A DNA stretch of 64,000 nucleotides from Candidatus Omnitrophota bacterium. Its GTDB lineage: Bacteria; Omnitrophota; Gorgyraeia; Pluralincolimonadales; Pluralincolimonadaceae. Numbering within the stretch: position 1 is the stretch's first letter; the number at the start of each line of letters is the position of its first letter. The position numbers and the translations under genes are program-made. The DNA lies in assembly GCA_003141835.1 (NCBI GenBank), contig PLNR01000005.1, positions 53,108 to 117,107 on the forward strand, read 5' to 3'. The notes under the pieces were generated by a model that had not been told where the DNA came from, ran no database searches, and was given only the letters and a program-made list of their open reading frames with translations. Shown here one piece after another: positions 1,427 to 58,270 of the stretch.

Positions 1427-3043
1427 ATGGCTGCTAAAACAGAACAAAGCCTATCGCAAAAGATAGTCAGGAATACCATTTTTAATGCCGCTGGTCGTTT
1501 TTTGGGGATCTTAGTTGCTCTATTTTTGACTCCCTACGTTATCCATCATATCGGCATCGAAAGATTTGGAATTTGGGCAATCGTAGGGGCGGTAACCGGC
1601 TATTTTGGTTTGTTTGATTTTGGGATAGGGACCTCGTTTGTAAAATACATCGCTGAATTTTATGCAAATAAAGAATTTAAAAAAATAAACGAGGTCGTTA
1701 ACACAGGTTTTGTTTTTTATTCCATGTTTGCAATAATTATTATTGCCCTGGCATTTATTTTCATTAAGCCGCTACTCTCGTTTTTTAAAATCCCCCCCTA
1801 TCTATATAGCGAAACGGTGTTTGTCTTTTTAGCCGGGGTTATTCTCTTTGGTATTTCCAATGTCTTAAGTGCCTTTGTGGTAATTCAACCTGGTTTACAA
1901 CGGATGGATATTACCAATAAGGTGGCAATAGTCCTTTCAATACCAACTATTGCCGGAACATTTTTTTTCTTAGAAAAAGGGTATGGTCTACCGGGTCTTA
2001 TGATCAACAATATTATTATGTTTGTTATAAGTGGCGTAATCAATATCGTTATTTCTTTCAAGATATTACCCGAGTTAAGGTTTAATCCTTTCCTGCAGAA
2101 CAAGAAAATGTTTAAGAAGCTATTCACCTTTGGTTATAAATTGCAAATAGTCAAAATGAGCAGTTTTGCCGGGTCACAAACCGACAAGTTGCTGATCACC
2201 TATTTCTTAAGCCTGGGATCGGTAACTTTTTATTATCTGGGTAATACAATTGTTGAGAAAGCAAAAGACGTGTCCCTTCTTATCACTTCGGCTCTTCTGC
2301 CGGCAATATCAGAACTTGATGCCGGGAGGAAAATGGACAAAATTGCTCTGCTGTATTTTAGGAGCATAAAATATGTTACATTAATTGCCCTGCCCTTGAT
2401 TTTTTTTCTTTTTACAGATGCTCGCCTAATTATTTTAACCTGGATGAACCAAGATTTTGAAAAAGCGGTTCTCGCTTTACAGATTTTATCCGTCGGGATT
2501 TTCACAAATATCCTAACCGGGCCGGCGGCAGTTACTGTACAAGGCATAGGAAAACCAGAATACAATATGAGAGTTAGCCTGTTGCATTTATTCTTGAACT
2601 TATTCTTGAGTATAACCCTAATCATCAAATTTGGTTTTGTGGGTGTTTTAATTGGCACATCCCTGTCTTGTTTTCTCACGGGCGGTTATTTCATTTTCTT
2701 AGTAAATAGATTGCTAAAAATTTCTTCCGTTGAATTTTGCAAGATTATTCTTCAACCTTTACTCGCCTGCTTACTGGCAGCTTTTTTTATTCATCTTTTA
2801 AATATTCCGTTTGCTCCGTCAGGTCTTGCGGTAGACCGCCTTGCCAATCTTGGCATTTTAGTTCGTAACGGTCTCGCTTTCGGGGTGATAATTATAGCAA
2901 TTCTTTGGGTCACCAGGTACTTTAACGAGGAAGATGTGTCCTTAGCAAAAAGCCTATTTACGCAAGTTTCTTATGGCATAAAAGGTTTGAAGGGCGGTAA
3001 TTCCCGGAGAGACGATAAGATCAATGGGAAAGACTTGCAATGA
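1427..3043 (+). CDS. Wzx-like polysaccharide flippase (MOP/PST family)
   Basis: 538 aa, about 14 TM helices, N-terminal pattern typical of polysaccharide biosynthesis/flippase proteins. Low-GC coding region. Confidence 0.65.
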   Translation: MAAKTEQSLSQKIVRNTIFNAAGRFLGILVALFLTPYVIHHIGIERFGIWAIVGAVTGYFGLFDFGIGTSFVKYIAEFYANKEFKKINEVVNTGFVFYSMFAIIIIALAFIFIKPLLSFFKIPPYLYSETVFVFLAGVILFGISNVLSAFVVIQPGLQRMDITNKVAIVLSIPTIAGTFFFLEKGYGLPGLMINNIIMFVISGVINIVISFKILPELRFNPFLQNKKMFKKLFTFGYKLQIVKMSSFAGSQTDKLLITYFLSLGSVTFYYLGNTIVEKAKDVSLLITSALLPAISELDAGRKMDKIALLYFRSIKYVTLIALPLIFFLFTDARLIILTWMNQDFEKAVLALQILSVGIFTNILTGPAAVTVQGIGKPEYNMRVSLLHLFLNLFLSITLIIKFGFVGVLIGTSLSCFLTGGYFIFLVNRLLKISSVEFCKIILQPLLACLLAAFFIHLLNIPFAPSGLAVDRLANLGILVRNGLAFGVIIIAILWVTRYFNEEDVSLAKSLFTQVSYGIKGLKGGNSRRDDKINGKDLQ

Positions 3044-4128
3044 CTGCTTTAGAAGCACTCAATAAAATATTAAGAACCCTGTATTATACCTTTCATCCAA
3101 AGCACCTCTTTTTGTCAGTAAGACGTAGGGTTTTAAGAAAGACAAAGACCTTATTTCACGGCGAACTCCCTAGTTCTCTTTTTATCGAGGTTACCGGAGT
3201 ATGTAATCTACGCTGTGTCATATGTCACCGTAGTCACATAAGGGAAGAATTAGGTGAAATGGATTTAGGCACTTTTGCCCGAGTTGCAAGGATTTTTCCG
3301 TATGTTGAATCGGTATGCCTCATGGGTATCGGCGAACCTTTAGCAAGCAAGAACATTCTCGAAATGATCGCTGTATGCAAATCATATGGGCTTTCAGTTG
3401 GTTTTAATTCTAACGGCGTTTTATTAACGCCTAGTTTAACTAAAGATCTAATCTTATCCGGGCTGGATACTTTTGTTTTTTCTATTGACGGCGCTACTAA
3501 AGAAGTATATGAAAAAATTCGTATCGGTTCAAACTTCGATAAAGTCATCGAAAATATCAAGACCTTTACTGAAATGAAAAAAGAACTTAATAGGAATAAT
3601 CCAATTTTAGGATTGGAATTTGTTGCCATAACCAAAAATATTCACGAGCTTTTACCATATATTGACTTAGCTAAAAAAATTGGCATTAATAAAATTGTCG
3701 TAAGCCATGTTATTACGTTTTCAGAAGACCAGGAAAAGGAGGCATTGTATAATCATAGTGATCCAAGACATCAACAAATATGGAATGAGGCAATATCAAA
3801 AGCGAGGGACTTAGGAATTCGTTTAATACTACCTCCGTCGCAGGCAGTAGAAAACTCAAATTGCAGGTTTAGACCCTGGAAATGTTTATTTGTATCTTGG
3901 AAAGGAGACGTAAAACCTTGTTGTACCTACCTCCATTCTTTACCACTTTTATATAAGGGTAAAAAAATAATAGTTCCTACAATGAATTTTGGGAATGTCC
4001 ATAAAGAAGATATATTAAATTTATGGTATTCTCCCGAATACATCAAATTTAGAGAGCAAATTTTGAATAAGAAATATACAGAGATATGTGATTGTTGCCT
4101 TTACTCAAAGGAACTAATACCCGCTTAA
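3040..4128 (+). CDS. radical SAM protein with Cys-rich SPASM/twitch-like C-terminal domain
   Basis: CNLRCVIC = CX3CX2C radical-SAM motif near the N-terminus. C-terminal 80 aa contain 7 Cys (CC..C..CDCC), suggesting auxiliary Fe-S cluster(s). Start overlaps the stop of the upstream gene. Confidence 0.7.
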   Translation: MTALEALNKILRTLYYTFHPKHLFLSVRRRVLRKTKTLFHGELPSSLFIEVTGVCNLRCVICHRSHIREELGEMDLGTFARVARIFPYVESVCLMGIGEPLASKNILEMIAVCKSYGLSVGFNSNGVLLTPSLTKDLILSGLDTFVFSIDGATKEVYEKIRIGSNFDKVIENIKTFTEMKKELNRNNPILGLEFVAITKNIHELLPYIDLAKKIGINKIVVSHVITFSEDQEKEALYNHSDPRHQQIWNEAISKARDLGIRLILPPSQAVENSNCRFRPWKCLFVSWKGDVKPCCTYLHSLPLLYKGKKIIVPTMNFGNVHKEDILNLWYSPEYIKFREQILNKKYTEICDCCLYSKELIPA

Positions 4129-5492
4129 TGAAAAAAGTTTTATTTATCAACCCAGCAGTTAATAAATGTGGCGTCCCCCATACAGGACTGGCGATGTTAG
4201 GTGCTGTATTGAAAGAACAAGGACACGCGGTAAAGATTGCGGACTACCATTTTTTTTCTAAAACACCAAAGATTGAAAAAATTCTTGACGATTTTAGACC
4301 CGATGTAGTGGGAATTTCACTGTTTTCTTGTGCGGTATCCGTTGCCGATAAGATGATCACGGTCATAAAGGGCAAGAATAAAAATATCCCATTGCTATGC
4401 GGCGGTCCACATACCTCTTCATATTATAAGGAATTATCTACTGACTCTCGATTCGATTATATTATTATTGGAGAAGCAGAAAGCATTATTGTTGACCTGG
4501 TGGAAAAGGCTACGAGTAATAAACTACCCCAGGTAATTTATGCCCCCTTACCTGATATTAACAAATTGCCTTTTCCAGATTACACTTCCTTTTATAATCA
4601 CGAGAGTATCGACTTATATCCAATTATCACCAGCCGCGGCTGTCCATTTAACTGTTCTTTTTGTTCTGTACGACTCTCAAATTCAAAAAACTGGAGACCG
4701 AGATCTCTAGGGAACTGTATTGAAGAATTAAAAAGAATTAAGTCGGAACTTATTTTTGTTAAAAGTGTAATGATTTGGGACGACAATTTTTCATTAGATA
4801 TAGATCGAGCAAAGCTTTTTTTGCAATTGTGGCTCAAAGAGAAATTTCAATATAAATTAAGCTTAGCTAATGTCCGGGCAGATAAGATCGATAAAGAATT
4901 CCTGTCGCTTCTTAAGAGGGCCGGATGCGAAGAAGTCCAATTTGGCGTTGAACATGGGAATCCAGAAGTTTTCAGGCACGTTGAAAAGGGAGAAACGCTG
5001 GAAGATATCAGGCGAGCGGCAAAATTGGTAAACCAATGCGGAATGAAATTGGGTTGTTCGTTTATCATAGGGTTACCTCACGATACTTTAAAAAGAACCC
5101 TCGACTCTATTAAGTTTGCGAAAGAGTTAAAACCAGATCATATTCATTGGAACATACTTGTTCCCTACAAAGGGACAAGAGTTTATGAATATTTTAAAAA
5201 GAACGGACAAGCAAATAATGCTTCTATACCCTTTACGATCCCGCAAGACGGGCTATCTTTTGAACCAAATGCCGACACTCCTTATTTTACTCGAGAGGAA
5301 CGAAAAAAAGCTTATTTAATGGCATTACTTTTGTCAAAGGACGATTTATTATTACAGGATATAAGAAAAACTTTTTATAGAGCTCTGGAATATAATCTAA
5401 TAAAAGAATTTTTGCAGTGGCTTATTAGTGCAAAAATAATAAAAAACTTGATTTGGACAGCAAGGAAGCGCATGTCAAGGTATAAAAGGTGA
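4128..5492 (+). CDS. B12-binding domain radical SAM enzyme (class B-like)
   Basis: N-terminal B12-binding-like Rossmann segment (MKKVLFINP...GISLFS) followed by SRGCPFNCSFC = CX3CX2C. ATG 4128 overlaps the upstream TAA (TAATG). Paralog of 6472..7845 and 16945..18231. Confidence 0.75.
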   Translation: MKKVLFINPAVNKCGVPHTGLAMLGAVLKEQGHAVKIADYHFFSKTPKIEKILDDFRPDVVGISLFSCAVSVADKMITVIKGKNKNIPLLCGGPHTSSYYKELSTDSRFDYIIIGEAESIIVDLVEKATSNKLPQVIYAPLPDINKLPFPDYTSFYNHESIDLYPIITSRGCPFNCSFCSVRLSNSKNWRPRSLGNCIEELKRIKSELIFVKSVMIWDDNFSLDIDRAKLFLQLWLKEKFQYKLSLANVRADKIDKEFLSLLKRAGCEEVQFGVEHGNPEVFRHVEKGETLEDIRRAAKLVNQCGMKLGCSFIIGLPHDTLKRTLDSIKFAKELKPDHIHWNILVPYKGTRVYEYFKKNGQANNASIPFTIPQDGLSFEPNADTPYFTREERKKAYLMALLLSKDDLLLQDIRKTFYRALEYNLIKEFLQWLISAKIIKNLIWTARKRMSRYKR

Positions 5493-6475
5493 ACGTATTA
5501 GTCACGGGCGGAACGGGATTTATTGGAAGTGCGCTGGTCAAACGATTACTCAGAGAGGGTAATAGAGTAGGAGTTTTGAGTAGAGGTGAAAAAATTTTAG
5601 ACATTTCTCCTGAAGAAGAAGTAAAAATATATAGGGCCGATATATCTGATTTGGCATCGCTTGAACGTTCATTTCCTCTAGCTGGGAATATGAATATAAT
5701 ATTTCACTTAGCCGCCTGCACAGATTACAATGCAAGTAAAGAGAAACTATTTCGGACAAATGTAAAAGGAACCTTAAACCTTCTTAATCTTGCTGTAAAG
5801 CGCGGAATTAAGAAGTTTGTGTATATCAGTAGCATTGAAGCAATGGGCCCTATAACGAAAGAGCAAATTCCAGCCGAGGAATCTTACGTTTGTCAGCCTG
5901 TAAATGCTTATGGAGAATCAAAATTAGAGGCAGAAAAACAAGTAACAAGAGTTGGAAGCGAGGGGAAAGTAGAAACAGTTATTTTGCGCCTAGGTAATGT
6001 ATACGGCCCTAAAAGCTTATCTTTTATTTCACCTATTTCCAGCGCTATTTTAAGTAAAAATAAAAGATGGCTATATTTTAATCGCGATAGGTATTTATGG
6101 CATCCTGTATATATTGAAGATGTTATTGATGGAATTATGAAAGCTGCAGAAATAAAAGGGATAAATAATACTTATATTCTAACAGATGCAGAATATATTA
6201 CAGTTGAAGGTTTATCTCAGTTAATAGCCCGAGCGTTAGACATAGATGCAAGAACGTTAAGGTTAAATAAAATTGAGAAATTATGTTTAAGTTTACGAAG
6301 GCAAGCAGATAATTTTTACCATTGCCGGGGAGACAGCGTCAAAGAGAGGCCCCATTGGATATTTTCAATAGAAAAAGCAATAAGGGAATTCGGGTATTCT
6401 CCTAAGGTGAATTTGCGAGAAGGGATAGCAAAAACTATAGAGTGGGCAAAAAAGGAAGGTCTTTTACCGAAATGA
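5489..6475 (+). CDS. NAD-dependent sugar epimerase/dehydratase (SDR family)
   Basis: GTG start. N-terminal VLVTGGTGFIGS Rossmann motif and YxxxK-containing core. Sits between two radical-SAM genes in the glycan locus. Confidence 0.8.
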   Translation: MNVLVTGGTGFIGSALVKRLLREGNRVGVLSRGEKILDISPEEEVKIYRADISDLASLERSFPLAGNMNIIFHLAACTDYNASKEKLFRTNVKGTLNLLNLAVKRGIKKFVYISSIEAMGPITKEQIPAEESYVCQPVNAYGESKLEAEKQVTRVGSEGKVETVILRLGNVYGPKSLSFISPISSAILSKNKRWLYFNRDRYLWHPVYIEDVIDGIMKAAEIKGINNTYILTDAEYITVEGLSQLIARALDIDARTLRLNKIEKLCLSLRRQADNFYHCRGDSVKERPHWIFSIEKAIREFGYSPKVNLREGIAKTIEWAKKEGLLPK

Positions 6476-7845
6476 GGATCTTATTTATAAATCCACCTGC
6501 AAGGGAACATCCGGTAGTCAGGGATATGGCGGGGGGGCTTGGGTTTGACGGCGGAAGCAGCATAGTTCTTCCGCCATTGGATTTGGCTTATATGGCTGCT
6601 ACTTTATTGAATAAAGGTCATAAAATAAAAATAATAGATGCTGATGTTGAAAGTTCTTCAAATGAAGATATTTACCGAATTACAGGAGAATATGGACCAG
6701 AGGTAGCAGTTGCCACAGTGTCCTTGCCCAGTATTTACTCGGATTGCTTATTCTTAAAAGGTATTCGAGAGCATACTTCAGCTAAAGTAATAGCCAAAAC
6801 AAACATTTCTTATCCCCCTATTCTAAAAGAGTTATTACAAAGAAGCTCTGCAGATTTATGTATTTATGGTGAGTGCGATCTCAATATCGAAGAGATAATT
6901 TCAGAAAAAGAAAGAAAAGGTACAGCTTATTTTAGAAATGATGAAATTATAATTGAAGAAAATAATTTTATACAGGATTTGGATAAATTGCCCCTGCCTG
7001 CAAGGCAACTCTTACCTAATGAAAAGTATAGATACGTCCTTTTAGGCGATGGAGTAACGACGATGCAGACAAGCCGGGGATGTTCGTTTCCCTGCTCATA
7101 TTATTGCCCCTATCCTTTGGCGCAGGGCCATAAATGGCGCTCAAGGAGCCCGGAACACGTCGTTCGGGAAATCGAAGATATCGTAAATAAATATCACATA
7201 CAAAAGATCTTATTTCGCGACGCCACTTTTACTTTTGACAAGGAAAGGGCAAGGCGGATATGCGAGTTAATTCTCGAAAAAGGATTAAAAGTCAACTGGT
7301 GGTGCGAAACGAGGGTAGACTGCCTGGATTTCGACCTTATGAAAAAGATGAAAACGGCCGGATGCCTTGGGATGAACATTGGCGTAGAAACCGGCGATCC
7401 GGAACTCATGAAGAGACAGGCAAAAATCGGAATGACCCTGGATAAGCTTAAGGAGATCAGGAAAGCGGCGCGGGAATTGGATATGCGGCTGCATTTTTTA
7501 CTGATGGTGGGCTTGCCTGATGAGACTAAAAAAACTCTCTACGCGACGTATAAATTGATCTGCGATCTAAGACCTGAAAGTATCGGTATCTGCATTATCA
7601 CCCCATACCCAGGAACGCTGTTATACAACGAAGCGAAACAAAAAGGCTGGATCGAGGCAGAGGAGTGGTCAAGGTTCGGGGGTCATTATCCCGTGATGCA
7701 TACCGGGAACCTTTCGGCCAAGGACTTAATAAAGGCGCAGCAAATGATGTTTAAGTACTTTTCGTTTTCGCGCGATGGTTCGCTAAAGGGCCGGTTAAGA
7801 TCAGCGCTGATGGACTGGCGTTTTAAAATGTGGGTTTTATGTTAG
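6472..7845 (+). CDS. B12-binding domain radical SAM enzyme with atypical CX3CX3C motif
   Basis: MRILFINPP B12-like N-terminal domain. Cys triad reads GCSFPCSYYC (tat tat tgc), one residue longer than the canonical CX3CX2C. DLDKLPLPAR motif shared with paralog 16945..18231. ATGA overlap with the epimerase stop. Confidence 0.7.
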   Translation: MRILFINPPAREHPVVRDMAGGLGFDGGSSIVLPPLDLAYMAATLLNKGHKIKIIDADVESSSNEDIYRITGEYGPEVAVATVSLPSIYSDCLFLKGIREHTSAKVIAKTNISYPPILKELLQRSSADLCIYGECDLNIEEIISEKERKGTAYFRNDEIIIEENNFIQDLDKLPLPARQLLPNEKYRYVLLGDGVTTMQTSRGCSFPCSYYCPYPLAQGHKWRSRSPEHVVREIEDIVNKYHIQKILFRDATFTFDKERARRICELILEKGLKVNWWCETRVDCLDFDLMKKMKTAGCLGMNIGVETGDPELMKRQAKIGMTLDKLKEIRKAARELDMRLHFLLMVGLPDETKKTLYATYKLICDLRPESIGICIITPYPGTLLYNEAKQKGWIEAEEWSRFGGHYPVMHTGNLSAKDLIKAQQMMFKYFSFSRDGSLKGRLRSALMDWRFKMWVLC

Positions 7846-7855
7846 GAAGGAAATC

Positions 7856-9733
7856 TTGAAAGACCTATCGTTAAGCGTGGTTATCCCGACGTGCAACCGA
7901 AAAGAGGTCCTTAAAAAGTGCCTTGATGCGCTTTTTAGGCAGACATATCCCAAATCCGGTTATGAAATTATCGTCATAAACGACGGCTCGTCAGACGGGA
8001 CCGACGAATTGGTTGGATCTGAAATAAACCGTTCGCCTTGCGCTTTACGATATTTTAAACAGGAAAACAAAGGGCCTGCCGCGGCAAGGAATGTGGGAAT
8101 CATGAATGCGAACGGTAAGATCATCCTGATCATCGGTGACGATATTATCGCTGCCCCTACTTTACTGGAAGAACATGCTAACCGGCATAAACAATTTTCG
8201 GGCGAAAATGTGGCTGTGCTCGGATATGTAACCTGGTCGCCGGATTTAAAAATCAATCCTTTAATGGAGTTCGTCGAACAGGTGGGATTCCAATTTGGCT
8301 ATCCCTTGATCAAGGATCCCGACGATGTACCCTTCAATTTTTTTTATACGGCCAACATTTCCTTGAAAAGAAAATTCCTGCTGGAAAAAGGGTTATTTGA
8401 CGAGGATTTTAAATATCCGGCCTATGAGGATATGGAATTAGGCGCGCGATTAAAGAACAAAGGCTTAAGGATCATCTATAACAAAAATGCTATCGGCTGG
8501 CATTATCATTCGTATACCCTAAAAAAATTTTGTGAACGCCAAAAGATGGTAGGCCGCGCTTCTGAAATTTATTCTAAAAAATATTCACAACTGACTGGCA
8601 CCGCAGAGGTTGTTAAGCCCCGGGAGCGATTGCGCTTGAAGATCAAGTTATTAGAACCGCTGCTTTTAATATCCGAAAGGTTTAAAATAAAAAGTTTCTT
8701 GTTCAAGTATTATTACACTATTTTGGAATTTTACAAAAATTTAGGGTATACCGAGCAATTGAGAACTAAAAAAGTTTCCATACAAAAGGATTTTGTATCT
8801 ATAGTTATTGTCAACTGGAACGGCAAGAAATATATAATCCAGTGCCTCGAAGCCGTATTTAAGCAGACCTATAAAAATTTCGAAGTTATAATAATAGATA
8901 ATGGCTCAACGGACGGTTCGGACCGGTCGATCGAAAGTTATTTACCCCGGATCAGGCTGATCCGGAATCAGGCAAACGCCGGATTCAGCAAAGCCAACAA
9001 CCAGGGGATCAAATTCTCAAAAGGGGAATTCGTACTATTGTTGAATACGGATGCATTTATAGAGCCGGATTTTTTGGAGGAGGCGGTCAAAGCCGCTAAG
9101 TCAGACGAAAGAATAGGCCTTGTAACGGGTAAGATATTAAAACAGTCATCTGAAAGCGGCAAAAAGGTCATAGATTCGACAGGCCATACGGGCAGCAGGT
9201 ATAGGCGTTTTTGCGACAGGGGAGGGGACGAAGAGGATAAAGGGCAATACGATATTTGCGGATATGTATTCGGCGTCTGCGCCGCCTGCGGGCTGTATAA
9301 AAGGCGGATGTTGGAGGATATCTCAATAGACGGGGAATATCTTGACGAATTGTTTTTTTCATATTATGAAGATGTGGATCTGGGATGGCGGGCGCAGCTT
9401 CGGGGATGGAAAGCTTATTATACGCCCCTGGCGATCAGCTACCATGTTCGCGGCGGAAGCGGCCTCCACGGGCGTTTGGGACGTTGTTTTGATTATCGGA
9501 ATTGGCACCTGATGATTTTCAAGAACGATTCTTTATTTAATATATTAAAAGATTTCCGCCAGGTTTGCACTTATGATTATTACAGGTCGAAAACCGCATT
9601 TATTGAAGGATATCTATTTAAAAGCTGGTTTGGCATAATAAGGCTGCTTCCATCGGTTATAAAAAAGCGGTGGATCATCCAAAGAAAAAAGACGGCAACC
9701 GATGAATACATACGCAAGTGGTTTAAAACATAA
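7856..9733 (+). CDS. tandem two-domain family 2 glycosyltransferase (GT2-GT2)
   Basis: Two GT-A modules, each with the VVIPTCN/IVIVNWN start and a D-x-D/NDGS(D) signature: VINDGSSDGTDE at the N-terminus and IIDNGSTDGSD mid-protein. Confidence 0.8.
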   Translation: MKDLSLSVVIPTCNRKEVLKKCLDALFRQTYPKSGYEIIVINDGSSDGTDELVGSEINRSPCALRYFKQENKGPAAARNVGIMNANGKIILIIGDDIIAAPTLLEEHANRHKQFSGENVAVLGYVTWSPDLKINPLMEFVEQVGFQFGYPLIKDPDDVPFNFFYTANISLKRKFLLEKGLFDEDFKYPAYEDMELGARLKNKGLRIIYNKNAIGWHYHSYTLKKFCERQKMVGRASEIYSKKYSQLTGTAEVVKPRERLRLKIKLLEPLLLISERFKIKSFLFKYYYTILEFYKNLGYTEQLRTKKVSIQKDFVSIVIVNWNGKKYIIQCLEAVFKQTYKNFEVIIIDNGSTDGSDRSIESYLPRIRLIRNQANAGFSKANNQGIKFSKGEFVLLLNTDAFIEPDFLEEAVKAAKSDERIGLVTGKILKQSSESGKKVIDSTGHTGSRYRRFCDRGGDEEDKGQYDICGYVFGVCAACGLYKRRMLEDISIDGEYLDELFFSYYEDVDLGWRAQLRGWKAYYTPLAISYHVRGGSGLHGRLGRCFDYRNWHLMIFKNDSLFNILKDFRQVCTYDYYRSKTAFIEGYLFKSWFGIIRLLPSVIKKRWIIQRKKTATDEYIRKWFKT

Positions 9734-11735: not shown

Positions 11736-12755
11736 ATGAAGATATTACTTTGCGCATCCAGTAATCCCCGCTTTATCGAATTGGGAGGATACGTGGAGAG
11801 GGCGCTGAATGCATTAGGGCATCGGTGCGAGAAGTTCGACTTTCGTCGATTTATTGTGCCCGGTGTCATAAGATACCGGGCTCCCCTTCTTAATAAATGG
11901 GATTTAAACAGGCTAAATCGTAGTTTGATCAGAAAAGTGTCTGAATACAGGCCTGACATTTTATTTGTAATCCAGGGGCATACGCTTTTTCCGGAAACGA
12001 TATCAGCGATCAAGCGAAGATTTGGGCCGACGACGATAAACTGGTTCCAGGATTATCCGAAGGATTTCGAAGTTTCTTTGAAATTAGCGCCTGTCTTTGA
12101 CCGTTTCTTTATGACCGACTCGTATGCTGTCCAATATCATTTAAACATTGGAAATAAGAATGTGAAATGCCTCCCTTTTGCTTGCGACCCCCAAATCCAC
12201 CGCCCTTTTAATTTAACAAAAGGGGAGCAAAAAACTTACGCGGCGGATATCGTATTTGTAGGCAGCATGTACGAATACAGGATCAAACTGCTTGAAAACC
12301 TGGTTGATTTTAACCTGGCAATTTGGGGACCGGGTTGGAAGAATTTGCAAGACAGGTCTTCATTAAAGAGATTTGTCAGAGGGGATGCTGTCATTCCTTC
12401 GGAATGGGTTAAAATTTTTAATGCGTCAAAGATCACATTTAATCATATCGGAGAATATAACATGCCTCCCTATCTTACGGGGAATAATATAGTTAATATG
12501 CGATTTTTTGAAGCGCTTGGTTGTAAGGCATTTCAAATAGTCGATTATAAAAAAGATATCTCCTCTTTATTATTCTCCGATAGGGAGGATCTGGTCTGTT
12601 TTAAAGATGATGATGAACTCAAGGAATTGGTCAAGTATTATTTAGCCCGCCCCGAGGAACGCAAAAGGATCTCTGAAAATGGCTATCGAAAAGTATTAGA
12701 AAAGCATACCTATATCGACAGGATGAAAGAGGTCTTTTCTTGTTTGGAGCAGTAA
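11736..12755 (+). CDS. CgeB-like glycosyltransferase (DUF3880 plus Glyco_trans_1_2-like)
   Basis: MKILLCASSN N-terminus and C-terminal RxxIxxxGxxxVLxxHTYxxRM pattern typical of the CgeB family. Clear paralog of 13706..14737. Confidence 0.5.
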   Translation: MKILLCASSNPRFIELGGYVERALNALGHRCEKFDFRRFIVPGVIRYRAPLLNKWDLNRLNRSLIRKVSEYRPDILFVIQGHTLFPETISAIKRRFGPTTINWFQDYPKDFEVSLKLAPVFDRFFMTDSYAVQYHLNIGNKNVKCLPFACDPQIHRPFNLTKGEQKTYAADIVFVGSMYEYRIKLLENLVDFNLAIWGPGWKNLQDRSSLKRFVRGDAVIPSEWVKIFNASKITFNHIGEYNMPPYLTGNNIVNMRFFEALGCKAFQIVDYKKDISSLLFSDREDLVCFKDDDELKELVKYYLARPEERKRISENGYRKVLEKHTYIDRMKEVFSCLEQ

Positions 12756-12757
12756 AT

Positions 12758-13702
12758 ATGACATCAAAATATGCAGATTGCATCGGTTGCGGAAATAAAA
12801 ATTTTAATTTTATATGTAATTTCTTCGATGGAAGTCGCAAATTTAAGGATAAATTGCGGCTTGTAAAGTGTAAAAGCTGCGGACTCGCGTTTATCAACCC
12901 TTTACCAAGCCGGGAGAAGCTGGAATCTTACGTTCAAAACCAGCTTTTTAGCGAAATAGACGACGGATCATATTTACCCCAGGTGAGGAAATTTTTATCC
13001 ATTAAAGATAAAGGAACGATTTTGGACATAGGCTGCGGAAGGGGATTTTTCCTTAACAGGATGAAACAGTCCGGTTGGTCCGCTTTTGGAGTTGAGCTAA
13101 ATGAACAAATGGCGGCGCAGGCAAAAGAAAAGCTTGGGCTTGATATCTTTTCCGGCACGCTCCGGGAGACAAGGTTCCCCGACGGGTCCTTTGATGCCGT
13201 AAATTTGCGCCATGTTTTGGAGCACCTGTTATCGCCGTACCAGGCCTTAACCCACATTCATAGACTGCTAAAGCAGGACGGGATCATTGTTATCACCGTG
13301 CCTAATTTTGAAGGCTTCCAAAGAAAGATATTCGGCAGATATTATTTGGCGGTGGCCGGAATATTTCACATCTCCCAATTCACTCCCCGCTCATTGAAGT
13401 CGTTATTGGAAAGGGCGGGTTACCGGGTGATCTCGACCAAGACATTTCAAGAGAGCGCTTCTGCGTGGCTTTATGGAGAGAGCCTGAGGTATTTGTTGAG
13501 AGATCTCAGGTTGTATCCTCAAAAGCAGGCCCTGGCCGGAAGAAGCAATTCCCTTAACGGCGCCTCGCCAAGGCCCTCAAGCCGTATATCGGTAAAGGAT
13601 TCCCTGCATTCCATTGAGCAAATATTATTTAAGGCCGTCGGGGGGATCGGAGCGGGCCTTGGCATGGGAGATGTAATGATCTGCTGCGCAAGGAAGGTGT
13701 AA
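12758..13702 (+). CDS. class I SAM-dependent methyltransferase with N-terminal Cys4 zinc ribbon
   Basis: CIGCGN...CKSCG zinc ribbon, then ILDIGCGRGFF (motif I) and acidic motif II. Paralog of 23219..24061. Confidence 0.75.
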   Translation: MTSKYADCIGCGNKNFNFICNFFDGSRKFKDKLRLVKCKSCGLAFINPLPSREKLESYVQNQLFSEIDDGSYLPQVRKFLSIKDKGTILDIGCGRGFFLNRMKQSGWSAFGVELNEQMAAQAKEKLGLDIFSGTLRETRFPDGSFDAVNLRHVLEHLLSPYQALTHIHRLLKQDGIIVITVPNFEGFQRKIFGRYYLAVAGIFHISQFTPRSLKSLLERAGYRVISTKTFQESASAWLYGESLRYLLRDLRLYPQKQALAGRSNSLNGASPRPSSRISVKDSLHSIEQILFKAVGGIGAGLGMGDVMICCARKV

Positions 13703-13705
13703 TAA

Positions 13706-14737
13706 ATGAAGATATTGTTATGCGCCTCTTCCAATAAACGGTTCATAGAGAACGGGGGATATGTCGAACTCGCTCTTAAAAAATTGGGCCATTGCGTGCA
13801 AGTCTTTGACTTCAGGGACTATCTTTTGCCTTTCGGGATCAGAAAGAGGCTCCCGGCTTTACACGGCTGGGACACGCATAGGATCAATAGGCTTCTCTAT
13901 GAACAAGCTAAGTCCTTCAAGCCGGATATCCTATTCGTTGTCCAGGGACAGACCATCCTGCCGCAGACGATCATTGAAATGAAGAAAAATTTAGGCTTGA
14001 TCGCAGTTAATTGGTTTGTAGATTATCCTAAGGAATTAGATCACGGTTTAAAAGTTGCTAAGGCATACGATCATTTTTTTGTAAACGGGACGGATGCGTT
14101 GGAAAAATACCTGGAAAACGGGATTACGCATGTTAAGTGGCTTCCGCTCGCTTGCGAGCCCGATATACATAAACCCCTGGTATTGGATGAAAAGGATAGG
14201 CTCAGGTTTAATGATGACATAGTATTTATCGGCTCTTTATATCCGGAGAGGATAAGTCTCTTCGGGAACCTGGCAGATCTTCCGCTTGGTATCTGGACCT
14301 GGGATGAGCGCCACCAGAAAATCGGGACATCATCCGCTTTAAGGAGAAGCATAAGGGGCGGCCCCTTGCCTCCTTGCGATTGGGTAAAATTATATAATAG
14401 CGCGAAGATCGCCTTGAATTCTGTCGGTCATTTCGGCGAATACGGAGAAAAAATCGGCGGGGATAAAATTCAGATGACAAACGCCAGGACATTCGAGATA
14501 CTTGCCTGCGGGACATTCCAATTAGTGGACAGGAAAAAAGACATTCTGGCCTTATTTTCCGATAGAGAGGATTTGGTCTGTTATAAAGACGGCGATGAAT
14601 TAAGGGACCTGGCCAAGTATTATTTAACCCACCCCGAAGAACGCAGGAAGATCTCGGAGAGCGGCCATAAAAAAGTATTGGAAAAACATACTTATGTCCA
14701 CAGGATGAAAGAAATATTCTCGTATTTGAAAATATGA
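13706..14737 (+). CDS. CgeB-like glycosyltransferase, second paralog
   Basis: N-terminal MKILLCASSNKRFIENGGYVE and C-terminal ERRKISESGHKKVLEKHTYVHRMKE closely parallel 11736..12755. Confidence 0.5.
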   Translation: MKILLCASSNKRFIENGGYVELALKKLGHCVQVFDFRDYLLPFGIRKRLPALHGWDTHRINRLLYEQAKSFKPDILFVVQGQTILPQTIIEMKKNLGLIAVNWFVDYPKELDHGLKVAKAYDHFFVNGTDALEKYLENGITHVKWLPLACEPDIHKPLVLDEKDRLRFNDDIVFIGSLYPERISLFGNLADLPLGIWTWDERHQKIGTSSALRRSIRGGPLPPCDWVKLYNSAKIALNSVGHFGEYGEKIGGDKIQMTNARTFEILACGTFQLVDRKKDILALFSDREDLVCYKDGDELRDLAKYYLTHPEERRKISESGHKKVLEKHTYVHRMKEIFSYLKI

Positions 14738-18421: not shown

Positions 18422-20320
18422 ATGTGCGGCATATGCGGGATCTTAGATTTTAATAAGTCCGGATCCGTCGAGCCAAGCTCGATCAAAAGGATGTGCGATG
18501 AGTTGAAGCATCGCGGACCGGATGACGAGGGCATATATTCAAACGGAAGGATCGGCCTGGGAGTAAGGCGCTTAAGCATCATAGACCTGGTTACCGGGCA
18601 CCAACCGGTCCATAATGAAGATAAAAAGATCTGGGTCGTCATGAACGGCGAGATCTATAATTTCCGGGACTTAAGGGACGGGTTAGAGGGCAAGGGGCAT
18701 AAGTTTTACACAAAGTCGGATACAGAGGTATTGGTCCATCTATACGAAGAATATGCCGAGAATTGCGTGCAGCATCTTCGCGGGATGTACGCTTTTGCGA
18801 TCTGGGATGAGAGACGGGATAAACTGATCCTCGCAAGGGACAGGGTCGGAAAGAAACCTTTGTGTTATCGTCTGGAGAACGGTAGGCTGGTCTTCGGCTC
18901 CGAGATCAAGTCGATACTGGCTGTTTCTGAAACGTCCCCCCGCATGGATTTAGAGGCTTTGGACCTGTACCTTACCTATAAATATATTCCGGCCCCACGG
19001 ACCATCTTCCAGGGGGTGAGGAAACTTCCGCCTGCGAGCATCCTGGTCTGGGAAGACGGGAAAATGACCGTAAACGAATACTGGGACCTGAAATTTACAC
19101 CCAAGGGTGATTTCACGGAGGCCGAATGGAAAGAACAGATCATGGACCGTTTAAGGGAGGCAGTAAAGATCCGCCTGGTAAGCGATGTGCCCCTGGGGGT
19201 CCTTTTAAGCGGCGGGATCGATTCAAGCGCGGTCACCGCTTTGGCATCCCAGTTTTCAGGCGGACCGGTCAAGACCTTTTCGGTGGGTTTTGAAGAGACC
19301 GATTTTTCCGAGTTAGAATACGCCCGCCTTATCGCAAAACGCTTTAATACGGAGCACCGCGAATTTATCGTAAAACCTGAGGCGGTGAAGATCCTGCCGG
19401 AATTGATTTCGCATTACGGAGAACCGTTCGCGGACGCATCCTGTATCCCGACTTTTTATCTGTCAAAATTATCGAGGGAGTTCGTGACCGTCGCGCTCTC
19501 AGGCGACGGCGGGGACGAGAATTTTGCCGGCTACGGCTGGTACAACATCCATTCTTATTTCGCGCCGTTTAAGGTCTTTCCGAGGCCTCTATTCGCCTTA
19601 AATGAATCCTTGTTTAAAGCGATGGGTTTTGCAAGGAGCAGGTCCGTCCTGTTAAGGCGCCTTCAAAAAGCGATGAAGTACGGCAGGTTAGGTCCCATCC
19701 AGCGATACGGCGAGTGGGTATCTTATTTTAACGAGGAATTAAAATCGCAGCTTTATAATGAAAAACTAAAAAAAGGATCGAGGAAAGAACGCGAGTATGG
19801 TCTATTGCTCGAATGCCTCAAGGGCGCCGGGGATCTGGGCATATTGGACAAGCATCTCTACGTGGATATCAAAAATTACCTGCCGGGAGACCTGTTGGTA
19901 AAGATGGATATCGCTTCGATGGCGAATTCGCTTGAAGTGCGCTCGCCTTTTTTAGACCATAAATTTTTGGAGTTTACCGCAACGATCCCCGCCGGATTGA
20001 AACTGAAACAAGGGGAAGGAAAATATATCTTTAAAAAAGCCATGGAAGGGTTGCTGCCGGAGGAGGTATTGAACCGGAAAAAACAAGGTTTTTCGGTCCC
20101 GTTAAAGAAATGGATAAGCAAAGACCTGAGCGGATTTATCGAGCGGACGCTATTAAGCAAAGAGTCGGCTGCCGGAGAATATTTTAATACGGATTTTATC
20201 AAGCGGATGCTGACGGACCACCGGAATGGCAGGGTAAATTATGCCGGCCACTTATGGGCGCTTGCGAATTTTGAAATATGGCATAAAATATTCATCGAGA
20301 AAAAAGATCATGCCGGATAA
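18422..20320 (+). CDS. asparagine synthase (glutamine-hydrolysing) family amidotransferase
   Basis: N-terminal MCGICGI (Cys2 Ntn nucleophile) and SGGIDSS PP-loop. In glycan loci such homologs amidate sugar carboxylates. Confidence 0.85.
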   Translation: MCGICGILDFNKSGSVEPSSIKRMCDELKHRGPDDEGIYSNGRIGLGVRRLSIIDLVTGHQPVHNEDKKIWVVMNGEIYNFRDLRDGLEGKGHKFYTKSDTEVLVHLYEEYAENCVQHLRGMYAFAIWDERRDKLILARDRVGKKPLCYRLENGRLVFGSEIKSILAVSETSPRMDLEALDLYLTYKYIPAPRTIFQGVRKLPPASILVWEDGKMTVNEYWDLKFTPKGDFTEAEWKEQIMDRLREAVKIRLVSDVPLGVLLSGGIDSSAVTALASQFSGGPVKTFSVGFEETDFSELEYARLIAKRFNTEHREFIVKPEAVKILPELISHYGEPFADASCIPTFYLSKLSREFVTVALSGDGGDENFAGYGWYNIHSYFAPFKVFPRPLFALNESLFKAMGFARSRSVLLRRLQKAMKYGRLGPIQRYGEWVSYFNEELKSQLYNEKLKKGSRKEREYGLLLECLKGAGDLGILDKHLYVDIKNYLPGDLLVKMDIASMANSLEVRSPFLDHKFLEFTATIPAGLKLKQGEGKYIFKKAMEGLLPEEVLNRKKQGFSVPLKKWISKDLSGFIERTLLSKESAAGEYFNTDFIKRMLTDHRNGRVNYAGHLWALANFEIWHKIFIEKKDHAG

Positions 20321-24061: not shown

Positions 24062-25088
24062 GATTAAGAAGATCCTGATCCTCCGGTTAGACCGCATAGG
24101 GGATATAGTGCTTTCTACGCCGGCAATTAAAGCGGTGAGGGAATATTTTCCGGAAACGCACATCGCGGTAATGGTCAGGGGGGAATATAAGGGCTTACTC
24201 ATAAACGATCCCGCCATAAATGAGGTCATCGGATGCAAGCCCCTTTGGGATTTTAAGTTCATCGGGGAACTGCGGGACAGGAAGTTCGATCTAGCCGTCG
24301 ACCTGGTCATGGACCGGGATTATAAAAGCGCTTTTTTGGCTTATTTAAGCGGGGCCCCTTATCGGGCAGGGTACGATATTGCAGGCAGGGGCATATTTTT
24401 CAATATAAGGGCCGGATATGGCAAAGAGAAGAAACATCTCGTTGAAAATAATTTAGATGTCATAAGAAAGCTGGGGATAGTCCCCGGCGGGGGGAGGCCT
24501 CAACTTCATGTTGCCCCGCAGGATTCGGGATTTATCAGGGATTTTTTATCATCACAGGGCATTGATCAGGGTGAAATTTTAGTCGGCATCCATCCCGGAG
24601 GATATTATCCATCGCAGCGCTGGCCGGCGGAGAGAGTCGCCGCGCTGTCCGATGAAATAATAAAAAGATACACTGCTAAGGTGGTCCTTATCGGAGGGCC
24701 GGAAGAAAGGGATTTTATGGAAAGGGCTGCGGGATCGATGAAGGTAAAAGCTATTGTCGTAAAAGACATCTCTTTGGCGCATTTAACGGCGCTGATCCGG
24801 CGGTGCCAGCTTTTGGTCTGTAATAATTCCGGGCCCTTGCATATCGCCTGCGCATTAGGGGTGCCTACGGTATCGACTATGGGGCCGACTTTACCCTGGC
24901 GGTGGTGGCCTGTCGGGGAGGGCCACATTGTCCTGCGGAAGGACCTGCCTTGCAGCCCTTGCGGGAAAGGTTCTTGCGGGACGCACGAGTGCATGGAATT
25001 GATCACTGTGGATGAAATGCTGGAGGCGGTTGACAAGCAGATGAAACTTTTGGTGAAGAATAAATGTGCGGAATCTACGGCGCGGTAG
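24042..25088 (+). CDS. family 9 glycosyltransferase (heptosyltransferase-like)
   Basis: ILILRLDRIGDIVLSTPAIKAVREYFP N-terminal signature of GT9 (RfaF/RfaC-like) and C-terminal CxxC Cys cluster. Overlaps the upstream gene by 20 nt. Confidence 0.75.
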   Translation: MLTQKNRIKKILILRLDRIGDIVLSTPAIKAVREYFPETHIAVMVRGEYKGLLINDPAINEVIGCKPLWDFKFIGELRDRKFDLAVDLVMDRDYKSAFLAYLSGAPYRAGYDIAGRGIFFNIRAGYGKEKKHLVENNLDVIRKLGIVPGGGRPQLHVAPQDSGFIRDFLSSQGIDQGEILVGIHPGGYYPSQRWPAERVAALSDEIIKRYTAKVVLIGGPEERDFMERAAGSMKVKAIVVKDISLAHLTALIRRCQLLVCNNSGPLHIACALGVPTVSTMGPTLPWRWWPVGEGHIVLRKDLPCSPCGKGSCGTHECMELITVDEMLEAVDKQMKLLVKNKCAESTAR

Positions 25089-28033
25089 GGATCCGGGACC
25101 CTTCGCTTTTGGAGCGCATGGGCGCGGTCACGATCCATCGCGGCCCTGATGAAAGCGGCGCCTATCTGGATGATGATGCCTCATTGGGCGTGCGGAGGTT
25201 AAAGATAATCGGGTTAGAATCCGGGCATCAGCCGATACACAATGAGGATCAGGCGCTTTGGCTCGTTTATAACGGCGAGATATATAACTTTAAGGAATTA
25301 CGATATTCCCTTGAGGCGAAGGGGCATAAATTCTATACGAAGACAGACGGCGAGGTGATCGTGCACCTCTACGAGGAATACGGCGAGGATTGCGTCAAAC
25401 ATTTAAGAGGGATGTTCGCCTTCGCTGTCTGGGATAAAAAAAACCGGAACTTATTTCTGGCGCGGGACAGGATCGGGATAAAACCGCTTTATTACACATC
25501 TGTTGACGGAGTTTTGTATTTTGCCTCAGAACTTAAGGCCTTATTGGAGGCGGATGTGATCAAAAAAGAGATAAACCCTGAGGCGATACATGATTTCCTG
25601 ACGTTCCTATATATCCCCGCCCCCTCGACGATCTTTAAATCCGTCTTTAAATTACCGCCGGGGTATACCTTGAGATTCCAGGACGGGAGTTATTCGGTAC
25701 AGGAATACTGGGACCTGGAATTGGATATAAGCAAGGAAAAGGATGAAATTTTTTACCTCGATAAGATATACGATCTATTGCAAGAGGCGGTAAAGTTACA
25801 TTTAATAAGCGATGTGCCTTTAGGGGTTTTTTTGAGCGGAGGAGTGGATTCGAGCGTCCTGGTAAGCATTATGGCGGGTTTGACAAATCGACCGATAAAG
25901 ACTTTTAGCATCGGATACGGCAGGAAAGACGAAGATTATAATGAGCTGAAATACGCCCGCCTGGTCAGTGAATGCTTTGGCACGGAGCACAGGGAGTTTA
26001 TCGTCAAACCGGACGCGATCGGACTCTTACCGGAACTCGCCTGGCATTTCGATGAGCCATTCGCGGATTCATCCGCGATCCCCACTTTCTTAATTTCAAA
26101 ATTAGCGAAAAAAGATATAACGGTCGCCTTAAGCGGCATCGGCGGAGATGAGGCCTTTGGGGGATATCCCAGGTATTTAGGCGCTTATATTTCCGGATAT
26201 TACCAGCGGCTGCCGGAAATCATGAGAAAGGCGGCGTATAAAGCGGCATCTTTATTTCCCGAGAGCACGCAGAACAGGGACCTCTTTAGTTGGGCGCGGA
26301 GGTTTGCCAGGGGCGGGCTCCTTCCTTTTGGAATGAGGTATTTCGATTGGGTGACTTTCCTGCGACCGGACGAGATAAATAAACTCTACACGGCAAGTTT
26401 TATCGGAAATTTAAAAGATGCCGGTCCGGTCAAGGATAAGCAGGCTTATTTCGGCGGGGACAGATCGCTGGAGGGGATTTTTCGTTTCGATATAAAAACC
26501 TATCTCCCCGATGACCTGCTCTTTATGGCGGATAAGATGAGCATGGCGAATTCGCTGGAATTGCGGGTGCCGTATTGCGACCACAAGGTGATGGAGTTTG
26601 CCGCCTCGATCCCCTACGGATTAAAGCTCAAAGGGCTTAAATTAAAATACCTGTTAAAAAAATCCTTCAAGGGCCTGCTGCCCCGGGAGGTCTTAACCCG
26701 GCGAAAACAAGGTTTTATGATCCCCATAGGCAGATGGATAAAACAGGACCTGAAGGGCGTCGCGGAAGAGCTCTTGTCCAGGCGGCAAATTGAAAAGCGC
26801 GGCTATTTCAATTACGAATATGTCCGCTGGATCCTGGACCAGCATTACTCCGGAAAACGGGATTTCACCGACAGGATCTGGGCGCTTATGAACCTGGAGA
26901 TGTGGCACAGGATATATATAGACAAAGATCACCCGGTAAATAAGGATATGGATATAGCGGTAGAAGATGTCCCCTCAGCTACGGGCAGGCATTGCCCCCG
27001 GATCGCCGGGGACGATTTTAAGGACGCCAAAAAGATCCTTATCGTAAACCTGGCGGGCATAGGAGACGTTGTGATGTCCACCCCTGCCTTGAGGGCGGTG
27101 AGAAAGAGATTTCCGTCGGCCTTTATCTCGTTCCTTACGGTCCCCGGTTCCGCCGGCATCCTCAGGGGCAGCTCAGATGTAAACGAGATATTGGCTTTAG
27201 ACGCGGGGAGACCGGGTATAAGAGATGTTTTAAGGCTGTTGACGGATCTAAGGAAAGCCAAATATGACATGCTGATCAACCTTTACGAGATAGGTTCGCT
27301 TTCCGGCGCTATTAAGATGGCATCTCTTTTCTGGTTCGTGGGTGGAAAATATAAAGTCGGACGGAATACCGGCGGATTAGGCTTCTTCTTAAATCGTAAA
27401 ATTTTTGAAAGCGCCCGGCTGAAAAGGCATACGGTCGAGTCAATGCTGGACATAGCGAGATTTTTGGGCGGCAACTCGGACGGGAAAGGCATGGAGATAC
27501 CGCTTGAAAAAAATGAGATGGATTTCGCCAGTGATTATCTTAAGTCGCATAATATTTCCGGCGAGGACCTGTTGTTCGGGCTTCATAAAGACGCTAAAAG
27601 GCCGAGCAGGCGCTGGCCGGATGAAAGTTGGGATATTCTGGAAAAAGAATTAAGAATAAGATACGGGGCAAAAATAATCTTGACGCCGGGCGCCGGCGAA
27701 TTTAATTTAAAACAATTTGCCGCCATCCTTAAAAGGTTCGACCTTTTCATTACTAATGATACCGGAGCCATGCATATCGCCGCGGCCGTGGGTACGCCCA
27801 CGGTGGCTTTATTCGGACCGTCGGACATCCATAAGTTCCGGCCTTATGCCGAGAGTGATAAATTTGCGATCGTAAGGAAACACGTCGGTTGTAACCGGCC
27901 TTGCTATAAGCATGATTGCGCAGATAAAGGCTGTATGGAGCGTATTGCGCCTGAAGATGTACTGATAGCGGCGGAGAAAATATTAAATGAAAAAAAGATT
28001 AAAAGTCCTTCATATAATCACGCGCTTAGATAA
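25064..28033 (+). CDS. fusion protein: asparagine-synthase-like amidotransferase (about 620 aa) plus GT9 heptosyltransferase-like domain (about 350 aa)
   Basis: MCGIYGA Ntn-Cys start and SGGVDSS PP-loop, then a continuous frame into ILIVNLAGIGDVVMSTPALRAVRKRFP (GT9 signature). 989 aa with no internal stop. Confidence 0.8.
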   Translation: MCGIYGAVGIRDPSLLERMGAVTIHRGPDESGAYLDDDASLGVRRLKIIGLESGHQPIHNEDQALWLVYNGEIYNFKELRYSLEAKGHKFYTKTDGEVIVHLYEEYGEDCVKHLRGMFAFAVWDKKNRNLFLARDRIGIKPLYYTSVDGVLYFASELKALLEADVIKKEINPEAIHDFLTFLYIPAPSTIFKSVFKLPPGYTLRFQDGSYSVQEYWDLELDISKEKDEIFYLDKIYDLLQEAVKLHLISDVPLGVFLSGGVDSSVLVSIMAGLTNRPIKTFSIGYGRKDEDYNELKYARLVSECFGTEHREFIVKPDAIGLLPELAWHFDEPFADSSAIPTFLISKLAKKDITVALSGIGGDEAFGGYPRYLGAYISGYYQRLPEIMRKAAYKAASLFPESTQNRDLFSWARRFARGGLLPFGMRYFDWVTFLRPDEINKLYTASFIGNLKDAGPVKDKQAYFGGDRSLEGIFRFDIKTYLPDDLLFMADKMSMANSLELRVPYCDHKVMEFAASIPYGLKLKGLKLKYLLKKSFKGLLPREVLTRRKQGFMIPIGRWIKQDLKGVAEELLSRRQIEKRGYFNYEYVRWILDQHYSGKRDFTDRIWALMNLEMWHRIYIDKDHPVNKDMDIAVEDVPSATGRHCPRIAGDDFKDAKKILIVNLAGIGDVVMSTPALRAVRKRFPSAFISFLTVPGSAGILRGSSDVNEILALDAGRPGIRDVLRLLTDLRKAKYDMLINLYEIGSLSGAIKMASLFWFVGGKYKVGRNTGGLGFFLNRKIFESARLKRHTVESMLDIARFLGGNSDGKGMEIPLEKNEMDFASDYLKSHNISGEDLLFGLHKDAKRPSRRWPDESWDILEKELRIRYGAKIILTPGAGEFNLKQFAAILKRFDLFITNDTGAMHIAAAVGTPTVALFGPSDIHKFRPYAESDKFAIVRKHVGCNRPCYKHDCADKGCMERIAPEDVLIAAEKILNEKKIKSPSYNHALR

Positions 28034-58180: not shown

Positions 58181-58270
58181 ATGACGGCTATTTACTGGAT
58201 CGGCGGTATTGTTTCTCTCGTTATTTTTGTTTATTTGTTGGTCGCTTTATTGAAGCCGGAGATATTCTAA
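58181..58270 (+). CDS. kdpF: KdpF, 29-aa subunit of the Kdp ATPase
   Basis: MTAIYWIGGIVSLVIFVYLLVALLKPEIF matches the KdpF pattern (aromatic/Gly-rich TM ending ALLxPExF). Stop shares a base with the kdpA ATG. Confidence 0.7.
   Translation: MTAIYWIGGIVSLVIFVYLLVALLKPEIF

Follow-up and report, generated by a model that had tools for sequence, protein, structure and literature searches.

The radical SAM gene and its cluster loop

The stretch of DNA analysed here (64,000 nucleotides (nt) of contig PLNR01000005.1 from a Candidatus Omnitrophota bacterium; hereafter the window) carries on its forward strand a run of five genes (3040–9733) that encode, in order, a radical S-adenosylmethionine (SAM) protein with a SPASM domain, a radical SAM protein of the B12 type, an extended short-chain dehydrogenase/reductase (SDR), a radical SAM protein with the cysteine spacing CX3CX3C, and a double GT2 glycosyltransferase. 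The fourth gene is the subject of this report: its product is AprD4-like, albeit no AprD4 orthologue, and its [4Fe-4S] loop is one residue longer than the canonical CX3CX2C.

Positions 7081–7107 read tgt tcg ttt ccc tgc tca tat tat tgc and are followed by ccc tat cct, giving C-SFP-C-SYY-C-PYP in frame with an open reading frame (ORF) that extends on the forward strand from GTG 6442 or ATG 6472 to 7845. A preliminary description of the window had recognised this motif, and it is real and lies in an intact gene; the span assigned to it there, 7081–7125, has the correct start but ends 18 nt beyond the third cysteine. Residue numbers such as Cys204 are counted here from ATG 6472, and residue ranges for Pfam and for Protein Data Bank (PDB) entry 6fd2 refer to the 467-amino-acid (aa) ORF from GTG 6442. 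An AGGAAGG Shine–Dalgarno-like sequence lies about 12 nt before ATG 6472, where the start of the gene overlaps the stop of the preceding gene as ATGA, and the identical database protein (P0001, 457 aa) starts MRILFINPP at this same codon. The in-frame GTG 6442 was considered as a start and appears unused; database relatives are mostly 456–457 aa.

The Pfam profile Radical_SAM (PF04055) matches ORF residues 209–373 over profile positions 2–166 of 166, with 66.9 bits (cut-off 29.5). Because the motif sits exactly at the start of this domain, it is the cluster loop and no chance pattern of cysteines; a second, canonical CX3CX2C was looked for elsewhere in the 457-aa protein and none was found. 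The B12-binding profile PF02310 gives no match at E ≤ 0.001 in the window protein, whereas the two neighbouring radical SAM proteins match it at 1e-16 to 1e-18; some homologues of the window protein carry weak or faint precomputed B12-binding matches. The cluster motifs of these two neighbours, CPFNCSFC (about 4641, forward strand) and CPYKCAFC (about 17691, reverse strand), are present and canonical, as had been described. Their use as paralogs against which to contrast the window protein is less apt: at 27% and 29% identity, and with their B12-binding matches, they belong to different subfamilies and are not recent duplicates.

Table 1. Positions of the features of the window discussed in the text, with strand and basis of assignment.
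Feature	Positions	Strand	Basis or remark
Radical SAM/SPASM gene	3040–4128	+	CNLRCVIC at 3202
Radical SAM gene with B12-binding domain	4092–5492 (alternative start 4128)	+	Pfam B12-binding and Radical_SAM; CPFNCSFC at about 4641
Extended SDR gene (NAD-dependent epimerase/dehydratase family)	5489–6475	+	Pfam Epimerase, 1.1e-40; candidate ketoreductase partner
AprD4-like radical SAM gene, 457 aa	6472–7845	+	Intact ORF; NF033070, 6fd2, AlphaFold2 model
CX3CX3C [4Fe-4S] loop	7081–7107	+	Cys204 (7081–7083), Cys208 (7093–7095), Cys212 (7105–7107); cluster binding predicted
Tyr210, inserted relative to canonical CX3CX2C	7099–7101	+	Alignment column, 113 representatives
Tyr211, aromatic before third Cys in all groups	7102–7104	+	Alignment of 113 representatives
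Pro213-Tyr214-Pro215, 'CPYP' signature after third Cys	7108–7116	+	P213 and Y214 invariant in alignment A1
W-W-C-E279-T-R281 strand motif	7297–7314	+	Pairs WWCETR with WWCETR of AprD4
G304-V-E306-T-G-D; by position, putative SAM-binding 'GGE'-type motif of the radical SAM core	7381–7398	+	Aligns to AprD4 GVESGD; G304 and E306 invariant in all three groups
Double GT2 glycosyltransferase gene	7856–9733	+	Two Glycos_transf_2 domains; directly downstream of the radical SAM gene
c-di-AMP riboswitch RF00379	57842–57999	+	Rfam, 79.8 bits against a gathering score of 38

Conservation of the additional loop residue

About 5.8 billion proteins were searched through a word index, without the motif as a selection criterion, and 852 matches were obtained at E ≤ 1e-10. 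Among the best 120 of these 852 homologues (48%–100% identity), every one contains G-C-x3-C-x3-C, with the consensus GC-P-[FY]-x-C-x-[YF]-Y-C-[PA]-Y-P. Alignment of homologues had been proposed as a check in the preliminary description, and the extra residue does recur in orthologs, mostly as Tyr or Phe; orthologs that all carry CX3CX2C, the outcome that would have spoken against a genuine variant, are not what these 120 proteins present. An exhaustive HMMER search of 1.84 billion representatives of 50% clusters extends the comparison outwards: of its best 150 matches (28%–61% identity), 61 possess CX3CX3C, and the more distant representatives are canonical. At 38% identity and above, the longer spacing is universal among representatives with a listed sequence that includes the motif region; P0149, a C-terminal fragment, does not include it. 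Five representatives (P0122, P0126, P0127, P0129, and P0131) are very long, at 1391–2494 aa, with the AprD4-like CX3CX3C domain at the N terminus; these could be either genuine fusions of several domains or adjacent genes called as one.

The residue responsible can be located in two alignments, one of 37 family members (A1) and a separate MAFFT alignment of 113 single-domain representatives. The three cysteines, P213, Y214, E279, and R281 are invariant in A1, and the three cysteines are also invariant in the 113 representatives. The difference between the two spacings amounts to one column, residue 210, encoded by the first tat: this is occupied by Tyr in 33, Phe in 8, and Ser in 2 of the 44 CX3CX3C proteins, and is a gap in all 68 CX3CX2C proteins, whereas residue 211 is, in all groups, the Tyr or Phe directly before the third cysteine. 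With an aromatic residue in 41 of the 44, the column bears out one of the earlier proposals, namely a genuine and tolerated one-residue insertion in the [4Fe-4S] loop. At the inserted position, D, S, or N replaces the aromatic in a few proteins.

The same description had also raised a recent replication slip from tat to tattat, which would make the gene a non-functional copy of a canonical CX3CX2C gene. Although the window codons are identical (tat tat) and canonical radical SAM genes lie nearby, as a slip would have it, the chance of this is next to nil. The closest 120 homologues share the extra residue, and the same spacing occurs in AprD4, an active enzyme. The codons of the aromatic pair differ in 50 of 81 related loci, including TTC TAC (Phe-Tyr), and read TAC TAT in a relative of 74% identity; these loci stem from a genome scan (one genome per species) that used the motif as its search pattern and thus serves here for taxonomy, codons, and gene context only, not for conservation. 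The gene is under purifying selection, with ratios of non-synonymous to synonymous substitution (dN/dS) of 0.14 against an 80%-identical relative and 0.11 against the 74%-identical one, both from other samples, and its intact ORF extends over the full length of AprD4. A recent copy cannot have come from the radical SAM genes nearby, because their products are only 27%–29% identical to the target.

Just as remote is the suggestion that an assembly or sequencing artefact added three bases. The contig does come from a metagenome assembly (k141_397642, ERZ27254250), but the same spacing is present in every homologue, across a large number of independent samples and assemblers, and in the sequence of crystallised AprD4 (6fd2). 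The identical protein is, moreover, recorded from NCBI, Logan, and ENA assemblies on several contigs, and a 3-nt error that exactly recreates the family consensus is not credible. Because of the conservation among homologues, the dN/dS values, the variety of codons, and the independent records, slip, decaying copy, and artefact are excluded as far as sequence comparison allows; the extra loop residue is ancient and fixed, and the contig carries no lesion here.

Relation to AprD4 and to other radical SAM families

The top NCBIfam match of the window protein is NF033070, 'AprD4 family radical SAM diol-dehydratase' (264.1 bits), followed by HpnJ (195.5) and BchE (157). Its top PDB sequence match is 6fd2 (E 2.4e-63, residues 14–445), described in its listing as AprD4 in complex with paromamine. 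The AprD4 loop in this entry, C-PYP-C-RFY-C, aligns without a gap to the window loop C-SFP-C-SYY-C; GCSFPCSYYCPYPL is likewise paired without a gap with GCPYPCRFYCPYPL, and GCSFPCSYYCPYPLAQG with GCPYPCRFYCPYPLSEG. The bona fide AprD4 equivalog P0241 (692 bits) also contains the loop CPYPCRFYC. An AlphaFold2 model built from the 37-sequence alignment has a mean predicted local distance difference test score (pLDDT) of 95.8 and a predicted template modelling score (pTM) of 0.93, and Foldseek superposes it on 6fd2 with a template modelling (TM) score of 0.89 in both directions (E 2.8e-40), the next folds being cobalamin-dependent radical SAM enzymes at 0.66–0.74. The window protein is thus predicted to possess the three-dimensional architecture of AprD4.

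As AprD4 (6fd2) exhibits the same spacing ungapped and the model superposes at TM 0.89, CX3CX3C is a known family hallmark. The spacing is therefore not novel in itself, having already been known for AprD4, and of the 'unusual radical-SAM variant' that had been proposed, the genuine and unusual character stands while the newness does not. The CX3CX3C of AprD4 was reportedly presented as noncanonical by Lv and colleagues in JACS in 2016, and its structure is said to have been described by Liu and colleagues in the same journal in 2018. Full-text literature searches for CX3CX3C or CxxxCxxxC retrieved nothing beyond a sentence on NifB that has no bearing on AprD4 (probably a typo) and one paper on sactibiotic mining from 2011.

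Likeness to AprD4 is not confined to the loop. Both proteins share the C-x3-C-x3-C-P-Y-P arrangement, the full-length domain architecture, and the motifs AGGLG, FRD, WWCETR, GVExGD, and TPYPGT. AprD4 is a radical SAM diol dehydratase that acts with the NADPH-dependent reductase AprD3 (PMC5461906; PMC11033246), and is reported to work without cobalamin and to have a Rossmann-like domain at its N terminus (PMC12931638), in keeping with the lack of a Pfam B12-binding match in the window protein. A gene of the NAD(P)-dependent reductase type also adjoins the window radical SAM gene. The two enzymes differ, however, in context and in partner: AprD4, the 1,2-diol dehydratase of apramycin biosynthesis, belongs to an aminoglycoside cluster and has a paromamine-type substrate, whereas the window gene lies in a polysaccharide locus beside an extended SDR whose relation to AprD3 is uncertain. 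By homology, Cys204, Cys208, and Cys212 would bind a [4Fe-4S] cluster.

HpnJ (TIGR03471), the second NCBIfam match, falls far short of its cut-off of 577.6 bits. HpnJ and the window protein both consist of an N-terminal Rossmann-like domain and a radical SAM core, and the adjacent window SDR resembles HpnA; the HpnJ-like representatives P0195 and P0202 (themselves below the cut-off), however, have a canonical C-x3-C-x2-C followed by xWPQ and are without CPYP, FRD, and CETR. In the 113-representative alignment, AGGxG (near the N terminus), CPYP, FRD, and WxCETR are absent from the HpnJ/BchE-like group, and only the CX3CX3C and CPYP groups have E279 and T280. The two-domain layout also recurs in cobalamin-dependent (class B) radical SAM enzymes such as TsrM, OxsB, TokK, CysS, and MgmA (TM 0.66–0.74, query-normalised), but these have the canonical motif, a true B12-binding domain, and 14%–19% identity to the window protein. 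The two neighbouring radical SAM proteins of the window are members of class B.

An uncharacterised CX3CX2C sister group bears the signature C-x-Y-C-P-Y-P (P0158, P0161, and P0174 are examples). This has AGGxG, C-P-Y-P, F-R-D, and W-x-C-E-T-R in common with the CX3CX3C group, but lacks residue 210, retains canonical spacing, and matches the AprD4 and HpnJ models about equally. As these signatures are common to both groups, the loop insertion arose within the CX3CX3C/CPYP super-group, and the canonical spacing of the sister group is likely to be the ancestral state of the loop. A rough neighbour-joining tree, star-like and unsupported, places 33 tips, including the window protein and AprD4, in one purely CX3CX3C clade; the other 11 CX3CX3C tips nest among CPYP sequences with CX3CX2C. 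This second CX3CX3C set comprises P0164, P0166, P0168, P0170, P0172, P0200, P0210, P0214, P0228, P0239, and P0270. Its placement hints at repeated gain or loss of the extra residue, which may have had one origin or more.

The recurring gene cassette and its setting

The B12-type radical SAM gene, the SDR gene, and the CX3CX3C radical SAM gene of the window are chained by 4-nt start/stop overlaps. In the database, the SDR of this contig is annotated with 299 aa and hence a start near 5576; the Epimerase match and the Rossmann motif VTGGTGFIGS, however, begin at residues 3–14 of the ORF from GTG 5489, and for this reason the longer ORF, which overlaps the upstream stop as GTGA, is the better model. 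HpnA ('hopanoid-associated sugar epimerase') is the top NCBIfam match of the SDR, at 119 bits and below cut-off, and a PDB search retrieves only generic GalE-type SDRs, which do not discriminate a reductase from an epimerase.

Neighbouring genes within 3 kb on the same strand were counted at 53 loci of the motif-based scan with at least 41% identity. A B12-type radical SAM gene is present at 44 of these, a GT2 gene at 41, and an SDR gene at 37, with all three at 32; the GT2 homologues at related loci are often aligned over more than 550 aa. By contrast, the three do not occur together at any of 27 more distant loci. Independent database gene calls place an SDR directly upstream at four loci (L082, L083, L084, and L085), namely a Nitrospiraceae metagenome-assembled genome (L082, with the same 4-nt overlap, ATGA), an Omnitrophica contig, and the two closest relatives. 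The L082 cassette (3405–7357) adjoins genes for a PMT_2 (ArnT-like) glycosyltransferase and a UbiA prenyltransferase; from these neighbours, the pathway may work on polyprenyl-phosphate-linked sugars.

Relatives were found by the same scan in 98 species, many of them Nitrospira, Omnitrophota, Planctomycetota, Binatia, and Patescibacteria, and also in Nostoc, Tumebacillus avium, and actinomycete AprD4 hosts. The four-gene cassette (B12 radical SAM, SDR, CX3CX3C radical SAM, and GT2) occurs in Nitrospira, Omnitrophota, Binatia, Desulfobacterota-like lineages, and other uncultured groups. No characterised system of the same gene composition turned up, in searches that were not aimed at the cassette.

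The window gene lies in a surface-polysaccharide locus: database calls on the contig place Wza, a Wzz-kinase, Wzy, and a Wzx-type flippase upstream, and many GT2 and GT4 glycosyltransferases and methyltransferases downstream. This setting bears on whether the gene is a true AprD4 orthologue from an apramycin/tobramycin-type aminoglycoside cluster. Such an assignment, to which the top NCBIfam and PDB matches (both AprD4) might lead, is highly improbable: the window protein attains 264 bits against an equivalog cut-off of 500, where real AprD4s reach about 690; its neighbours are Wzy, Wzx, Wzz, Wza, and glycosyltransferases; and they differ from those of AprD4 in the actinomycete Streptoalloteichus hindustanus (L076), which are a GMC oxidoreductase and an alkaline phosphatase. 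The S. hindustanus locus contains three SDR-type genes, one each of the adh_short, Polysacc_synt_2, and extended types, among which AprD3 is not nameable; the window SDR matches the extended one weakly (26%, 61 bits).

Several other features of the window may be recorded. The glycan locus contains two genes of the asparagine-synthase (glutamine amidotransferase) type, at 25064–28033 and 18422–20320, both on the forward strand. The latter reads from its translation as a putative AsnB, and the 989-aa product of the former matches Glyco_transf_9 (heptosyltransferase) at its C terminus; provided that the ORF is genuine, such a fusion would be unusual. Two paralogous Glyco_trans_1_2/DUF3880 proteins, encoded on the forward strand at 11736–12755 and 13706–14737, both begin with MKILLCASSN.RFIE.GGYVE, and a class I methyltransferase gene (12740–13702) lies between them. 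Further along, the RF00379 riboswitch is situated upstream of kdpA (58270–60018) and of a gene for a P-type ATPase, probably kdpB (60028–62106); a c-di-AMP riboswitch upstream of kdp genes is a known type of association.

Proposed chemistry and its significance

By analogy with AprD4/AprD3, a cluster held by Cys204, Cys208, and Cys212 would reductively cleave SAM to yield a 5′-deoxyadenosyl radical, which would then take a hydrogen from a hydroxyl-bearing carbon of a sugar. Loss of the adjacent hydroxyl from the resulting substrate radical, a 1,2-diol dehydration, would leave a keto-deoxy sugar, the ketone of which could be reduced with NAD(P)H by the SDR encoded immediately upstream. The product would be a deoxygenated sugar destined for the surface polysaccharide of the surrounding Wzx/Wzy/glycosyltransferase locus; candidate substrates are a nucleotide sugar, a polyprenyl-phosphate-linked sugar, or a glycan.

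We put at roughly 85% the probability that the product of the gene is a functional radical SAM enzyme from the AprD4-like clade, with its [4Fe-4S] cluster on the conserved C-x3-C-x3-C; in the manner of AprD4, this enzyme would perform a radical dehydration, to be followed by ketoreduction by the SDR. Certain points weigh against this reading. The protein shares only about 29%–32% identity with AprD4 and fails the NF033070 equivalog cut-off, which makes shared chemistry an extrapolation; cluster binding by the three cysteines has homology as its basis; and the gene resides in a surface-polysaccharide locus and not in an aminoglycoside cluster. The window SDR, for its part, is an extended, GalE-like protein and at most a candidate orthologue of AprD3.

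Some of these points lend themselves to another interpretation, in which the AprD4 scaffold and its loop serve to transform a sugar or glycolipid by other radical chemistry (candidates being epimerisation, ketone formation by oxidation, C–C rearrangement or ring contraction as proposed for HpnJ, or some further transformation), the SDR then being an epimerase or dehydrogenase. The score below the AprD4 cut-off, the second place of HpnJ at 195 bits, and the match of the SDR to HpnA are consistent with this; the B12-type and SPASM radical SAM genes of the cassette make several radical steps plausible, and the UbiA and PMT_2 genes at L082 hint at polyprenyl-phosphate-linked sugar chemistry. On the other hand, no other characterised enzyme comes nearly as close as AprD4 in sequence or in predicted fold, the motifs FRD, WWCETR, and GVExGD are common to the two enzymes, and the translational coupling of the radical SAM gene to that of an NAD(P)-dependent SDR mirrors AprD4/AprD3. 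A different reaction is accordingly a serious alternative, albeit less likely than not. We tentatively suggest for the cassette as a whole (AprD4-like enzyme, coupled SDR, B12 radical SAM, and double GT2) that it might install a deoxy sugar made by radical SAM chemistry, possibly C-methylated, into cell-surface glycans.

For annotation, CX3CX3C spacing in AprD4-type enzymes gives no ground to flag a frameshift-like error or a pseudogene. AprD4-like genes exist outside antibiotic clusters, both in the window and in about 100 species genomes recovered by the motif-based scan, and most of the closer relatives belong to a conserved SDR/B12-radical-SAM/GT2 cassette within glycan loci, which is the only part that deserves follow-up. 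Should the proposal for the cassette hold, environmental bacteria would widely make deoxysugars of their envelope polysaccharides by radical SAM diol dehydration, a chemistry hitherto known solely from the pathways of aminoglycoside antibiotics. Identification of the substrate would extend radical deoxygenation chemistry to the envelope polysaccharides of Nitrospira and candidate phyla.

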